In this document: positions 23,671-39,131 of the stretch, piece by piece | Layout: every line of letters begins with the position of its first letter | Numbering within the stretch: position 1 is the first letter of the stretch | Origin: Escherichia phage vB_EcoM_PTE-Eco09 | DNA length: 64,000 nucleotides | Sequence record: PQ306574.1 | Strand: one strand, 5' to 3' | Made by a program: the position numbers and the translations under genes | The notes under the pieces: model-generated | What the model was told of the DNA's origin: nothing | The model's database searches: none | Seen by the model: the letters and a program-made list of their open reading frames with translations, nothing else

Positions 23671-23674
23671 GATT

Positions 23675-23700
23675 AAGCCCGTCAATGACGGGCTTTTTTT
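23675..23700 (+). terminator. Rho-independent terminator
   Basis: AAGCCCGTCAATGACGGGCTT hairpin followed by TTTTTTT. Confidence 0.6.
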
Positions 23701-23701
23701 A

Positions 23702-23956
23702 TTATAGATCGATAGCATGAGCATAACCATGTAAGAAGTCTTTTAATTCTTCCTTATTGGTAACACGCTGTAAAATCTCTAATGCCTTGTCGCGATCACG
23801 TAATGCACCTGAAAGGGATTTTATTTGATCATCCCTTTCTGCAATCTGCTTAAGCAGATCTGTATTGCATTTAGACAAATAGAGAACTTCACCCCGCAAT
23901 GTTGCTAATTCGTTATCCAGACGATCATAGAGTTTTAACAAAATGTCTTCTGTCAT
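23702..23956 (-). CDS. Hypothetical coiled-coil protein, antisense to the surrounding plus-strand genes
   Basis: 84-aa ORF, ATG with GAGGA RBS; heptad-like Leu pattern; lone minus-strand gene in a plus block. Confidence 0.35.
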   Translation of the reverse strand: MTEDILLKLYDRLDNELATLRGEVLYLSKCNTDLLKQIAERDDQIKSLSGALRDRDKALEILQRVTNKEELKDFLHGYAHAIDL

Positions 23957-24145
23957 AAGAAGTCCTCGTATAGTACCCGTTTTATTTATTACTGTATAAA
24001 AATATAGTTATTGGTTAAAACATAACCAAAACGAAGAAAGATCTTTAGAATAATAAAAATTTGTTTCGGTTAAAAAGTAGTCAGTGCCTACGGCACGTCG
24101 CAAAGCGACAATTGTTAATAAATATTTTCATTTGAGGAATCAGTA

Positions 24146-25440: not shown

Positions 25441-25701
25441 ATGTCCAATCAGCATGAACAAATGATTAATGTCCTGAAAGTACGTCTGTTTGACACTCAA
25501 GAAAAGGCCGCATTCTTAGAAGGCCAACTGAAAGATCGTGAGCGTGTATTGATGGAACTGGTACGCATTCTGGGTATTCAGCCAGACGAAAACGGGACTG
25601 TTTCCCTTGATGCTATTGTCGAAGAAGTGAAAGCACTTCTCCCTAAAGACGAAGCAGCGGAAGACGCAGAAGAGGAAGTAGAACTGATCACGGAGGCTTG
25701 A
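25441..25701 (+). CDS. 57A: Tail fiber assembly chaperone (gp57A-like)
   Basis: 86 aa, coiled-coil with acidic C-terminus; the track start is GTG, moved to ATG 25441 with TAGGAGA RBS; position after gp1. Confidence 0.5.
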   Translation: MSNQHEQMINVLKVRLFDTQEKAAFLEGQLKDRERVLMELVRILGIQPDENGTVSLDAIVEEVKALLPKDEAAEDAEEEVELITEA

Positions 25702-25703
25702 TT

Positions 25704-26168
25704 ATGACCCCGTTTAGAGAATCCGTTAAAGGTACATATGCGGCGGTTAAATTCACTGAGGATACACTAGACCGCATTGAAAAATTGCAGGAGTTCTACG
25801 ATCTGCCTAATGCCGTTCCTCGTGATAAACTGCATAGCACTATCTTATATTCTCGTGTCTATGTTCCGTTTATACCAGAAGAAGGTGAAAAGTTTTTAGG
25901 CTCTCTATGCCATCTGAAAGTGTTTGAAACTCAATCCGGTACTAATGCGCTTGTGTTGGCATTTGAAAGCGACTACATGCAATTCAGACACGATATAGGC
26001 ACTGCTTTAGGCGCGACGTGGGATTATCCTGAATATGTACCGCATATCACGCTTTCTTATGATGTTGGTGCGCGTAAATTTGGCACTGACCTAGAGTTCG
26101 ATTTAGAGATTGTCCGATCTCATGAGTATGTCGAAGATCTAGACCTGGAGTGGACGACCAAACTGTAA
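25704..26168 (+). CDS. 57B: 2H phosphoesterase-like protein (57B-like)
   Basis: Two H-x-T/S-x motifs (LHSTILYS and PHITLSY) typical of the 2H/LigT family; position after 57A. Confidence 0.55.
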   Translation: MTPFRESVKGTYAAVKFTEDTLDRIEKLQEFYDLPNAVPRDKLHSTILYSRVYVPFIPEEGEKFLGSLCHLKVFETQSGTNALVLAFESDYMQFRHDIGTALGATWDYPEYVPHITLSYDVGARKFGTDLEFDLEIVRSHEYVEDLDLEWTTKL

Positions 26169-26206: not shown

Positions 26207-26211
26207 AGGTG

Positions 26212-26661: not shown

Positions 26662-26690
26662 TTGACAACATGAAACGGGGGTAGTAAGAT
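26662..26690 (+). promoter_or_regulatory. Early promoter module with stem-loop over the -10 box
   Basis: TTGACA-N17-TAAGAT; inverted repeat GGGGGTA/TACCCCC (26677-26696) spans spacer and -10. Confidence 0.6.
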
Positions 26691-26721
26691 ACCCCCACAA
26701 ACAAACGAAAGGAGAATCAAG

Positions 26722-26880
26722 ATGAAATTTATCGGTAAAACTTTTATGTTCGTAGCTGGTACTCTGTTTACTGCAACTCTGTTAGCTGGTGGCTTAGATA
26801 TCTTTACTGCATTTGAAACTTTCGGGTATACTGTAGCATCGGGTGCTCTCTTCGGATTGGGTTTAGCGATTAGCAAATAA
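26722..26880 (+). CDS. Small hydrophobic protein (52 aa)
   Basis: ATG after AAGGAGA RBS; MKFIGKTFMFVAGTLFTATLLAGGLDIFT..; not in the ORF track (under 60 aa). Confidence 0.5.
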   Translation: MKFIGKTFMFVAGTLFTATLLAGGLDIFTAFETFGYTVASGALFGLGLAISK

Positions 26881-26889
26881 GGTGATAAT

Positions 26890-27084
26890 ATGGAATTGGA
26901 TATGGTTAAAGCAAAATTTATGGGTAAGGATAAGAGCGGTAAAACATTTGTTATTAATAGAACATTGTTTCGCTCTGACCTTAAGTGGGTAACACAACAA
27001 TTTGCGGAAGTCAACGAGGCAGTTGTGACATGCTTCGTTGATGATAAAAAAGTTTTTGAAATTGATCGTCGTGGGGGTGTCTAA
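26890..27084 (+). CDS. Hypothetical protein (64 aa)
   Basis: ATG with AAGGTGA RBS. Confidence 0.5.
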   Translation: MELDMVKAKFMGKDKSGKTFVINRTLFRSDLKWVTQQFAEVNEAVVTCFVDDKKVFEIDRRGGV

Positions 27085-27281
27085 TGATCACTAAACTGTT
27101 TAGCAATACTTTGTTTCTGATTGCATTTGTTTTCTTTCTGTGTCTGATGATCGGTGTTGTTACAGTAGGTAGCTATTCCGGTGTTACCTTAGATGATTTT
27201 TGCCAACTTGTTTTAGTCTCGTTTATACCTAGTATTCTGCTCGCTTTATGTGGTGCTTTCAGATGGCTCTGTGATCTATGA
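27084..27281 (+). CDS. Small membrane protein (65 aa)
   Basis: Hydrophobic N-terminal stretch, GGGGGTG RBS. Confidence 0.5.
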   Translation: MITKLFSNTLFLIAFVFFLCLMIGVVTVGSYSGVTLDDFCQLVLVSFIPSILLALCGAFRWLCDL

Positions 27282-27384
27282 ATGAACAGGAACGAATGAT
27301 GTTGATAGGTGGACCGGAGTTCACTAAATTTGATGCAATTCTTATTGCGTTGGGTTTTCTTATGATCTGTTGTATGGTGGCGCT

Positions 27385-27609
27385 ATGAGTAGCATAAAAT
27401 ATTTTGCTTTCTTGTGTTTTATGATGTTCTTTACATTCTTAGCATGTGTTTTCTTTACATGGCTTGCTCATGTTGATAATGCAACCGGACCGTTTTACTT
27501 CTTCTGTGTGTTGTCTGTGTTGACTGGTGCTCTTGTTACGTGGATGATTCGAGATTGTTACGTAATGTATAAGTTTGAAAAGACTCGACCGAAATGGGGC
27601 AAACGATGA
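27385..27609 (+). CDS. Small membrane protein (74 aa)
   Basis: ATG with GGTGG RBS (the track start at 27370 is TTG); two hydrophobic segments. Confidence 0.45.
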   Translation: MSSIKYFAFLCFMMFFTFLACVFFTWLAHVDNATGPFYFFCVLSVLTGALVTWMIRDCYVMYKFEKTRPKWGKR

Positions 27610-27788
27610 AATTATTTGCGTGGCTAATTATTTTAAATGTAATTGTTAAGACCGTTCTCGCTGGTTTACTGATGATACATAGCACGAAACCAGAAGAAGC
27701 ATTAACGTATTTTGTTGCTTATGTGCTGGGATTCTTGCTTACTGCGTGGATGTGTGATGAATATCGAAGAATTGAGGTAAAACCATGA
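27606..27788 (+). CDS. Small membrane protein (60 aa)
   Basis: ATGA start/stop overlap with the upstream ORF; hydrophobic. Confidence 0.45.
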   Translation: MKLFAWLIILNVIVKTVLAGLLMIHSTKPEEALTYFVAYVLGFLLTAWMCDEYRRIEVKP

Positions 27789-28003
27789 AAATGACTTTTT
27801 ATATCTTAGCAAGTATCATGCTTGTGATCTCTTCTGCACTATTTGCATTTCTTACCGTTTGGGGGATCTGTACTGATGCGAAGCCGTGGGATATCGTAGA
27901 AAATACGGTTATGTTCATTATCAGTGTCATGTGTCTTTTTGATGCGTTTAACTCTATCAAGGAAGAAGATCAAAAACGTCGCGAGAGAAAGCGATATAAA
28001 TAA
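27785..28003 (+). CDS. Small membrane protein (72 aa)
   Basis: GAGGTAA RBS; hydrophobic core and basic C-terminus (KRRERKRYK). Confidence 0.5.
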   Translation: MKMTFYILASIMLVISSALFAFLTVWGICTDAKPWDIVENTVMFIISVMCLFDAFNSIKEEDQKRRERKRYK

Positions 28004-28152
28004 TAGTGAACTAAAGACAGCGCGGTTAGAATGATTTGGACGTCACCTAGCCGCATTTATTACAGCGTATGGGGTGACCCGGTACGCTAAAGCATTCACT
28101 TGCTAGGCCGCTAGCAGGTTGGAGACAAGGAAGATTCGCTACCTTCCCTATA
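28004..28152 (+). ncRNA. Candidate structured non-coding RNA
   Basis: About 150 nt with no ORF on either strand and several inverted repeats (GTCACC/GGTGAC, CTAGGCCGCTAG, GGAAG..CTTCC), ending at the terminator at 28153. Confidence 0.25.
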
Positions 28153-28178
28153 AGCCACTCTTCGGAGTGGCTTTTTTA
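28153..28178 (+). terminator. Rho-independent terminator
   Basis: AGCCACTCTTCGGAGTGGCT hairpin followed by TTTTTT. Confidence 0.65.
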
Positions 28179-28204
28179 TTGCCTAAAATTTTTTAAAAAA
28201 GTTG

Positions 28205-28233
28205 TTGACACCAGATCACGCCTATAGCATAAT
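28205..28233 (+). promoter_or_regulatory. Early promoter module (TTGACA-N17-CATAAT), conserved-leader type
   Basis: GTTGTTGACA..TAGCATAAT..ATCGAAACGAAACAC leader. Confidence 0.65.
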
Positions 28234-28279
28234 ACACCCATCGAAACGAAACACACTTTCTTAAACGGAGAATCAAATT

Positions 28280-28465
28280 ATGGCACGTCGCATCACTAAA
28301 GCACTGAAAGCAGTAAGCAAAGAAAACGTAGTAGCTATTCTGGTCATCTGGGGTTATAACGAAGAATCCGCTAAACAGAAAGTTGAAGCAGGGTTTGAAC
28401 TGGCGGTAAAAGCAATGCCGAATGATGACTCTGTAGGACTGGCAAACTATATTGCATATTTCTGA
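28280..28465 (+). CDS. Hypothetical protein (61 aa)
   Basis: ATG after the promoter and ACGGAGAA RBS. Confidence 0.5.
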   Translation: MARRITKALKAVSKENVVAILVIWGYNEESAKQKVEAGFELAVKAMPNDDSVGLANYIAYF

Positions 28466-38164: not shown

Positions 38165-38760
38165 TGGCGCAATTATATTTCTACTATGCATCTATGAACG
38201 CTGGCAAATCAACTTCTCTGTTACAAAGTGCTTATAACTATACCGAACGTGATATGCGAGTATTAATTCTTAAGCCAGCGATTGATAATCGAGATTCAGA
38301 AAGTGAAGTTGTTTCCCGAATTGGTCTAAGTGCTCCAGCGATCACCTTCACTAAATCGGATGATCTTTTCGATTTGGTTTATCGTGAATCATTAGGTAAG
38401 CGTAGACCGGATCGCTGGCGTCCTGATGCTGTATTTGTAGATGAAGCCCAATTTATGACTAAAGAGCATGTTTTAGGCTTGTGTGCGCTTGTTGATGATG
38501 CAAATATCCCTGTACTGTGCTATGGCCTTCGCACCGACTTTCAGGGCAATCTATTTGAAGGATCTGCGGCATTAATGGCATTTGCTGATAAACTGGTCGA
38601 AATGAAGGGTATTTGTCATTGTGGCAAGAAAGCAACAATGGTCCTTCGTGTAGATAAAGAGGGTAATGTTATTCGCGATGGTGCTCAAATAGAAGTTGGT
38701 GCAGAGGATAAATATGTCTCTGTGTGCCGTAAACATTTTATTGACGGTACTACCAAATAA
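38164..38760 (+). CDS. tk: Thymidine kinase
   Basis: YASMNAGKSTSLLQ P-loop, VFVDEAQF, YGLRTDFQGNLFEGS, CHCGKKA resemble T4 Tk. Confidence 0.9.
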   Translation: MAQLYFYYASMNAGKSTSLLQSAYNYTERDMRVLILKPAIDNRDSESEVVSRIGLSAPAITFTKSDDLFDLVYRESLGKRRPDRWRPDAVFVDEAQFMTKEHVLGLCALVDDANIPVLCYGLRTDFQGNLFEGSAALMAFADKLVEMKGICHCGKKATMVLRVDKEGNVIRDGAQIEVGAEDKYVSVCRKHFIDGTTK

Positions 38761-38779
38761 GAGTTAATCATAAATAAAG

Positions 38780-38819
38780 CCCCAGATTATAAATATAACT
38801 GAATATTTTTAATCTGGGG
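38780..38819 (+). promoter_or_regulatory. Long hairpin carrying a TATAAATA late-promoter motif in its loop
   Basis: CCCCAGATT..(22-nt loop containing TATAAATA at 38788-38795)..AATCTGGGG, about 33 nt upstream of the ATG at 38829. Confidence 0.35.
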
Positions 38820-38828
38820 GAATGACTT

Positions 38829-39131
38829 ATGTCATTTATTCGTAAAACTCTAACAGCGGCAATATGCTTGACTGCGGTCGGAAGTGTCAGTGCTGATCAA
38901 TATGATCCAACTGGTGACTTTACTGATTATTTCGACGGTGCAATGATAGTATATGTAAACAAAATATCTCCTTCCATTGAAACCAGCCAGAAATTTCATG
39001 CCCATATTATGAAGATGTATGCTCGTAGTAAATGTATGGATTCTAAGCAGTGTTTTATTATGGGGGAATATGCCGCACAACAGTTTGTTATGTTGCATAA
39101 TATGGAGAATCGAGAACATGAAATTCAGTGA
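38829..39131 (+). CDS. Secreted protein of unknown function (100 aa)
   Basis: Signal peptide MSFIRKTLTAAICLTAVGSVSA; GGGGGAA RBS. Confidence 0.5.
   Translation: MSFIRKTLTAAICLTAVGSVSADQYDPTGDFTDYFDGAMIVYVNKISPSIETSQKFHAHIMKMYARSKCMDSKQCFIMGEYAAQQFVMLHNMENREHEIQ

Follow-up and report, generated by a model that had tools for sequence, protein, structure and literature searches.

A conserved, Krischvirus-restricted non-coding segment with a predicted RNA fold at the 3′ end of the dmd operon

Here, we analyze a non-coding segment of about 175 nt, positions 28004–28178, within a 64,000-nt stretch of the genome of Escherichia phage vB_EcoM_PTE-Eco09 (sequence record PQ306574.1; the whole stretch is called the window below). 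This phage belongs to Krischvirus, a genus of T4-type coliphages resembling RB49. Over the 2.5 kb surrounding the segment, identity to such phages is 97–99%, 58 GenBank records match, and vB_EcoM_G5211 is the top match (99.3%). We show that the segment is non-coding, single-copy, confined to Krischvirus and conserved, that its fold ends in a terminator, and that its helices survive all substitutions seen. What the segment does is less certain. Judging from sequence features, we hold with about even confidence that it specifies a structured RNA of the + strand, which would be made early as the 3′ end of the operon carrying dmd and late as a transcript from a promoter of its own, and which would act in trans. 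The initial annotation had proposed a small RNA (sRNA) or a structured 3′ untranslated region (UTR). The class is right, in that the segment is non-coding, conserved, oriented on the + strand and closed by a terminator, but the support from covariation falls short of significance.

The same annotation had seen no plausible open reading frame (ORF) here, and we agree. The segment is among the few stretches of the window that lack an ORF of at least 35 amino acids on either strand, and only three ORFs of at least 25 amino acids touch it:

27924–28034: 36-amino-acid ORF with a GTG start, nested in the upstream gene and overlapping the 5′ end of the segment
27970–28056, − strand: 28-amino-acid ORF overlapping the 5′ end of the segment
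28119–28196: 25-amino-acid ORF with a TTG start, reading through the terminator

Among near-identical genomes, the 5′ leader, hairpin 2 and the terminator T-run (see below) differ by indels of 1 and 2 bases, and no reading frame is therefore kept across the segment. A few gene callers put short, mutually inconsistent ORFs over it. As had been noted, the segment lies between a cluster of small ORFs and the next promoter: a 72-amino-acid ORF (27785–28003) comes before it, closed by three different in-frame stop codons in a row (TAA TAG TGA, 28001–28009), and the promoter TTGACA-17-CATAAT comes after it.

Predicted fold, conservation and distribution

The + strand of the segment has a predicted minimum free energy of −65.7 kcal/mol (z = −4.55 against dinucleotide shuffles, 0 of 200 of which are as stable), and folding of the − strand is weaker (z = −3.96). 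This z value is the second lowest of ~130 windows sampled in the early region, and the GC content of the segment (48.6%, versus a window mean of 40.2%) places it in the top 2% of 175-nt windows. The predicted fold of the + strand comprises four hairpins followed by a strong intrinsic terminator:

28004–28021, + strand: 5′ leader, predicted single-stranded; position 28016 is G, A or deleted among genomes
28022–28054, + strand: hairpin 1, with an 8-bp stem (28022–29/28047–54) that includes one invariant U·G pair, and a 17-nt loop, AAUGAUUUGGACGUCAC
28064–28088, + strand: hairpin 2, with a 7-bp lower stem (28064–70/28082–88) and a variable apex, 28071–28081, of 2–3 bp plus loop
28099–28118, + strand: hairpin 3, with an 8-bp stem, CUUGCUAG/CUAGCAGG (28099–106/28111–118), and a GCCG loop; invariant
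28119–28128, + strand: purine-rich linker UUGGAGACAA, invariant, predicted single-stranded, including GGAG
28129–28147, + strand: hairpin 4, GGAAG/CUUCC (28129–33/28143–47), with a 9-nt loop, AUUCGCUAC
28152–28178, + strand: intrinsic terminator, with a 9-bp stem (28152–60/28165–73) and a UUCG loop, followed by six U

A structured body before a terminator hairpin and U-tail is also the arrangement seen in sRNAs of the Hfq/ProQ class. The terminator was called strong in the initial annotation, and at 28152–28173 it is (−14.8 kcal/mol, with six T after the stem-loop). It is annotated as such in GEC-3S, G2248 and other records. In FL15 (PP400778), the loop TTCG is replaced by CGAA (at 28161–28164), an exact inversion of the whole hairpin that leaves the stem unaltered. 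The tetranucleotide CTAG occurs three times in the segment RNA, against 0.33 expected. Elsewhere in the early region, the lowest folding z (−7.2) belongs to 38700–38874, where a long hairpin, AAAGCCCCAGAT...ATCTGGGGG, encloses a copy of the late promoter motif TATAAATA at 38788–38795.

All three inverted repeats listed in the initial annotation are found in the segment, and two of them lie in predicted hairpins, namely CTAGGCCGCTAG, which forms the hairpin tip at 28099–28118, and GGAAG/CTTCC at 28129–33/28143–47. The third, GTCACC/GGTGAC at 28042–47/28073–78, is present but confined to this allele. GGTGAC falls within the variable apex of hairpin 2, where other genomes read GGCGAT, GTTAAT or ATTAAT, and its pairing with GTCACC is most likely coincidental. 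A kissing interaction between GUCACC and GGUGAC in the loops of hairpins 1 and 2 is likewise rejected, since the hairpin-2 apex varies and the hairpin-1 loop does not. Two helices had been overlooked, the 8-bp stem with G·U pairs at 28022–29/28047–54 and the main hairpin, AGCGTAT/GTACGCT, at 28064–70/28082–88. Two further pairings were tried and set aside. A closing helix, 28005–10/28095–100, suffers uncompensated independent changes at 28097 (kaaroe) and 28098 (MIZ2), and an alternative RNAalifold helix between the 5′ end and the hairpin-4 loop would be truncated in a transcript from the late promoter and is partly broken in MAVA01.

The pairing was followed in an alignment of 19 distinct copies, in which the five-helix structure has 37 pairs, or 703 stem cells. 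All 703 cells pair when read as the + strand, versus 640 of 703 when read as the − strand (9% A·C mismatches), and three G·U pairs are invariant. The G·U pairs and the − strand mismatches identify the + strand as the RNA strand. An RNA from the − strand is rejected on account of the same mismatches and because that strand has no terminator. Five pairs vary, and all still pair. The six substitutions that fall in the counted stems, like two more at the hairpin-2 apex, preserve pairing by way of G·U or of a compensatory change, and do so on the + strand only. Hairpin 1 changes from U-A to U·G at 28049 in phage Brandy (its loop carries C28041U in ERZ27295289), and hairpin 4 changes from A-U to G·U at 28131 in ERZ27295289. 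The lower stem of hairpin 2 shows A-U to G·U, G-C to G·U to A-U (28065/28087) and G-C to G·U, while its third apical pair exists in G-C, G·U and A-U versions. There are 13 versions of hairpin 2 among 21 copies, and all 12 of the 12 versions folded share one shape; the apex falls among the most variable 3% of 12-nt windows. As a rough estimate, 6–8 pairing-preserving events would have p ~0.004–0.016 if half of all transitions break pairs and if the events are independent.

Leaving hairpin 2 aside, 144 and 145 of the 148 positions of the RNA are identical in the two most distant relatives. Identity in the same two genomes is 79% and 82% for the adjacent ORF, 87–88% for the whole region and 75–82% for hairpin 2. 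Because the diverged hairpin 2 is flanked by two conserved halves, a single recent transfer of the segment is unlikely.

The segment occurs at one place per genome in 58 of the 58 matching GenBank records, at 96.6–100% identity, and BLAST matches of related contigs against the window reveal no second copy. All remaining BLAST matches, in a set of 50,697 phage records, cover the generic terminator alone. Exact-word scans of IMG/VR and JGI metagenomes return four contigs, all Krischvirus-like. Relatives of the upstream 72-amino-acid protein, all 83–93% identical, lead to three further contigs. Together, searches of IMG/VR and the JGI metagenomes, searches with neighboring proteins, and inspection of the contigs that encode them uncover no distant homologues beyond Krischvirus-like copies. 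BLAST against 5,426 E. coli genomes and 72,556 plasmids finds no match that could represent a homologue or a complementary target. None of the matching records annotates an RNA at the locus. In that of GEC-3S, for example, the equivalent of 28004–28151 is unannotated and is followed by an annotated terminator and then by an annotated early promoter. ARAGORN reports 0 tRNA or transfer-messenger RNA (tmRNA) genes in the window. An Rfam scan, which the initial annotation had proposed as a check, gives 0 matches in the window at gathering threshold, and an E-value scan adds only sub-threshold matches driven by the terminator, the best being to RNAI (22.8 versus 47 bits).

Transcription, mode of action and rival explanations

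The segment is framed by the following transcription signals:

26662–28003, + strand: early operon, with a promoter at 26662–26690, a 52-amino-acid ORF, dmd (26890–27084) and five small, mostly hydrophobic ORFs
27995–28002, + strand: candidate late promoter with the exact T4-type consensus TATAAATA and a predicted start at ~28008–28010
28205–28233, + strand: next early promoter, TTGACA-17-CATAAT, serving ORF61/DUF7421; outside the RNA, and its downstream limit

There is no + strand terminator between 26195 and 28152. Since none intervenes between the 26662 promoter and 28152, the RNA is predicted to be at least the 3′ end of the dmd operon, and early in infection it would be made in that form. 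No sigma-70-type promoter belonging to the RNA itself was found. Downstream, the DUF7421 cassette (promoter-leader plus gene) occurs without the RNA in ~50-kb siphovirus contigs; the RNA therefore belongs with the upstream operon, and the idea that it is part of the DUF7421 cassette is rejected. The DUF7421 gene itself (61 amino acids), with its −10 region and leader (28227–28465), shares 75–80% amino acid identity with those siphovirus-sized contigs, a pattern suggesting that a promoter-gene cassette has been exchanged between phage families.

Late transcription is suggested by the motif at the 5′ edge of the segment. RB49 has T4-like early and late promoters, no motA and no middle promoters, and T4-type late promoters consist of essentially this motif at −13 to −6 (PMC1524935). 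The exact motif TATAAATA has four copies in the window, compared with 6.4 expected, and each of the other three is followed, 25–33 nt downstream, by a start codon that has a ribosome-binding site. The copy at 27995–28002 overlaps the end of the upstream ORF, both its final codons and its stop. By the shuffle rate, an exact copy would fall in a given 50-nt window with a probability of ~0.0025, and the one upstream of the RNA is retained in 20 of 21 copies. From here, a gp55-type promoter would start transcripts at ~28008–28010 that stop ~170 nt further on, yielding a discrete small RNA. Such a late transcript, from ~28008 to the terminator, is predicted to adopt the same fold.

The RNA may then act in trans, and here our proposal becomes more tentative; binding of a protein seems the most probable mode, ahead of long base pairing. 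Protein binding is favored because the stems and loops are nearly invariant, only the hairpin-2 apex varies, and neither the window nor E. coli yielded a complementary target. Against sense transcripts of the window, the longest complementary run is 11 nt and there are 7 ten-mers, versus 10.9 in shuffles, a comparison that short seeds escape. Pairing to the upstream hydrophobic ORFs, in the manner of a type I antitoxin, is rejected, as it extends over at most 9 nt. A RegB site at GGAGACAAGGA, whose sixth and seventh bases, C and A, make for a poor fit to GGAGRAYARAA, is likewise dismissed, and so is a CsrA-type sponge (4 GGA versus 2.3 expected, not significant).

Several observations weigh against this proposal. 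The late promoter is not indispensable, because one metagenome contig that lacks it keeps the RNA: in MAVA01000028.1, a 14-nt deletion of GATATAAATAATAG (27993–28006) eliminates both TATAAATA and the stop codon, and a new in-frame TAA is found within GAACTAAAG. The site does not appear in the published list of RB49 late promoters (Nolan 2006), and TATAAATA also codes for the C-terminal Tyr-Lys-stop of the upstream protein. Neither a target nor a partner emerged from the searches of the window and of E. coli. Covariation, another check suggested in the initial annotation, gives a divided answer: every variant keeps pairing, but only one pair is changed on both sides in fully compensatory fashion, 56 of 500 column shuffles score equally well, and the test is not significant at the very low diversity of these sequences. 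Finally, the conservation signal is good but not exceptional, since 4.6% of 148-nt windows are equally conserved and the downstream gene is 96% identical; patchy recombination could contribute to it.

It is also possible, though we consider it rather unlikely, that the segment is a purely cis-acting 3′ UTR with no separate RNA function, one that protects the mRNA of the dmd operon from 3′ exonucleases and insulates the next promoter cassette. The segment is indeed contiguous with the operon, lacks a sigma-70-type promoter of its own, and in one contig exists without the late promoter; the failure to find a trans target is also in line with this view. Moreover, it ends in the stem-loop of a PeSL (promoter-early stem-loop) module, and PeSL stem-loops are known to terminate or attenuate transcription (PMC2839356). 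However, a stabilizer requires stable helices rather than a particular sequence, whereas loops, linkers and stems are here 97–98% identical, compared with 79–88% for their neighbors. In addition, other PeSL cassettes in the window have the terminator alone. Also against it, the segment is a rarity as an ORF-free stretch (at the 35-amino-acid limit), and an exact late promoter consensus stands at its 5′ edge.

Still less probable, in our view, is that the segment has no function as RNA, being instead a site on DNA for protein binding or recombination, or else the decayed trace of a cassette since lost or of a ToxI fragment once captured, whose apparent conservation would be due solely to recent recombination or to hitch-hiking with the conserved downstream gene. 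Conserved patches of similar size lie nearby, ORF61, at 96% identity, is just downstream, and cassettes are known to shuffle in the region (PMC2839356). TGCTAG-4-CTAGCA and GACGTC, both palindromes, might be bound by proteins, and low diversity limits what the covariation test can say. On the other hand, the substitutions in stems all keep pairing, and do so on the + strand only; hairpin 2 has diverged between conserved flanks in both distant relatives; folding energy and GC excess are typical of a structured RNA; and the downstream cassette travels alone.

Likeness to ToxI and the weakest alternatives

One 13-nt stretch of the segment, GAUUCGCUACCUU at 28133–28145 (loop and 3′ strand of hairpin 4), is identical to part of the unit of ToxI, the RNA antitoxin of type III toxin-antitoxin systems. 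It is found exactly in the 36-nt ToxI unit of the E. coli IncX4 plasmid pU90-1, in the phiTE pseudo-ToxI and in the unit of phage VR7, and 12 of its 13 bases recur in the classical ToxI of pECA1039 and in that of E. coli pNMEC-O75B. The exact match has p ~0.001–0.003 against dinucleotide shuffles, a value that overstates the resemblance because the likeness was spotted post hoc. Another block, AGCGCGGUUAGAA (28019–31), agrees with the 3′ half of the VR7 unit in 11 of its 13 bases (p = 0.11).

These two blocks raise the idea of a decoy derived from ToxI, with a 3′-half-like AGCGCGGUUAGAA at 28019–31 preceding a 5′-half-like AGG..GAUUCGCUACCUU..AAG at 28128–54. The RNA would be a rearranged ToxI descendant, not cleavable, that binds ToxN-family endoribonucleases of E. 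coli plasmids and is made early with Dmd and late from the gp55 promoter. It would stand in for TifA as the RNA counterpart of that T4 protein. We regard this as distinctly improbable. To its credit, the RNA shares an operon with dmd, a search of the window for a TifA homologue came up empty, phiTE sets the precedent that mimicry works (PMC3475682), and ToxI-like units prove to be common in the 3′ UTRs of enterobacterial phages. Such units are present in 140 phage records, and only that of phiTE is annotated. A single complete unit of 35 nt comes immediately after the rIII stop codon in ~88 members of the VR7 group of T4-like coliphages (VR7, HM563683, 129433–129467). Further carriers are Yersinia TG1 and phiR1-RT, Salmonella 7-11, the E. 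coli podophages XT32 and FH3, Klebsiella pzk-kv7 (~two units), Serratia 92A1 and Vibrio RYC. This suggests that, with unannotated ToxI-like units in >100 phage genomes, mimicry of type III antitoxin RNA is far commoner than the single case of phiTE. Directly 3′ of the phiTE pseudo-ToxI we also see an apparent tRNA 3′ half (GGTTCGAACCC ... CCACCA).

The rest of the segment does not bear the likeness out. ToxI arrays are processed by ToxN at AA^AU, at the junction between units, and 28004–28178 has no AAAT at all, versus 1.5 expected. Once the 13-mer is masked, shared k-mers with ToxI show no significant excess; contiguous identity covers 13 of the 36 nt of a unit, and the remainder is not significant. 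Scored across the window, this site is marginally the best, at 26 versus 24 for chance sites. TRF finds no tandem repeats at 27900–28300, where real ToxI arrays give 4–5.6 copies. With respect to the ToxI pseudoknot (stem 1 AGGU/ACCU, stem 2 YGC/GCR), a 3-bp pairing resembling stem 1 could form but competes with the 5-bp hairpin 4. For stem 2 the downstream partner is missing, and the sole GCG candidate (28022–24) lies 110 nt upstream, occupied within hairpin 1. Nor does the window contain a ToxI-like complement of the hairpin-2 apex. One complete pseudo-ToxI repeat, furthermore, did not suppress over-expressed ToxN. The silence of Rfam is uninformative on this point, because real ToxI arrays are also unmatched at gathering threshold.

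Finally, a very small protein, such as the 25-amino-acid TTG ORF at 28119–28196 called by PHANOTATE-type programs in a few genomes, is hardly credible: coding sequences are annotated over part of the segment in FL15, UPWr_E1 and some others, but the records disagree on the ORF, which crosses the terminator, lacks a properly spaced ribosome-binding site, and shifts in frame and length with the T-run indel.

Genomic setting and comparison with known systems

Upstream of the RNA, the gene order is deoxynucleoside monophosphate (dNMP) kinase, gp57A, Acb1 and then the dmd operon. Acb1, an anti-CBASS nuclease of the T4 57B family, is encoded at 25698–26168 (Pfam E = 1.5e-51), and Dmd at 26890–27084 (tblastn E = 6e-15, Pfam E = 6e-16); both genes lie within 2.3 kb upstream of the RNA. 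Homologues of TifA, AdfA and Sp were not detected in the window. In T4, the name anti-toxin island has been given to the dmd region, whose products Dmd, TifA and AdfA are directed against RnlA, ToxN and DarT, respectively (PMC9391042). The setting beside acb1 and dmd suggests a role in counter-defense. Further upstream, at 23671–24145, 475 nt without a + strand ORF begin with a terminator and, by eye, hold a − strand ORF of ~88 amino acids in an otherwise + strand region; this is also the part least conserved relative to IMGVR_UViG_3300005711_000030 (58–66% identity).

RB49-type phages are reference relatives of T4 and are used in phage therapy. They have been described as having no RNA genes (zero tRNAs), and the RNA proposed here would be their first. 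It would be a structured RNA conserved across the genus, in the operon of the anti-toxin protein Dmd and adjoining the anti-CBASS nuclease Acb1. If a role in counter-defense is true, it adds an RNA to an island that has so far been protein-only.

How does the segment compare with elements already described? Its terminator (28152–28178), together with the AT-rich spacer and the promoter at 28205–28233, matches the PeSL modules of RB49 and phi1 (Arbiol et al. 2010, PMC2839356), and the promoter part of such modules recurs in the window at 26207, 29157, 41008 and 44259. Unlike a PeSL, however, the 148 nt 5′ of the stem-loop (28004–28151) are single-copy, lie outside the module and are not mentioned in that paper. 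T4 offers another comparison in rnaC and rnaD (species 1 and 2), which are small non-coding RNAs of a T4-type phage that run in the early direction downstream of 57A and 57B (acb1). The Krischvirus segment shares no sequence similarity with them (local alignment p = 0.9 and 0.31) and has no tRNA-like 3′ domain, and it ends at a terminator, while rnaC and rnaD are cut from a tRNA precursor. With 0 genes from ARAGORN and alignments at chance level, a tRNA, a tmRNA or an RNA of the rnaC/rnaD type is rejected.

The likeness to phiTE pseudo-ToxI and ToxI (Blower et al. 2012, PMC3475682) lies in a phage non-coding RNA beside counter-defense genes and in the shared GAUUCGCUACCUU, which spans the 3′ strand of stem 1, loop 1 and the 5′ strand of stem 2 of the ToxI pseudoknot. 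The segment differs in that it lacks repeats, a full unit, an AAAU junction and, as far as the predicted pairing shows, a complete pseudoknot. The VR7-group unit comes closer in its setting, as it, too, immediately follows a stop codon within a 3′ UTR of a T4-type coliphage and includes the 13-mer. Nevertheless, the VR7 unit is complete at 35 nt and sits at rIII, whereas the Krischvirus RNA, in the dmd operon, has at most fragments within four unrelated hairpins. Were the doubtful descent from ToxI nonetheless true, the T4-type anti-toxin island would include a member made of RNA, the decoy.

CpxQ, SroC and DapZ are enterobacterial sRNAs derived from 3′ UTRs. Like them, the segment stands at the 3′ end of an operon, shares the terminator of the mRNA, and combines a hairpin, a short A/U linker and a terminator with a U-tail. 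A promoter within the preceding coding region, a feature of DapZ-type RNAs, is possible for it as well, although here the candidate is a phage late promoter of the gp55 type. The Krischvirus RNA, previously unannotated and restricted to its genus, is in kind one already known, that of phage small RNAs sharing the 3′ end of an operon.

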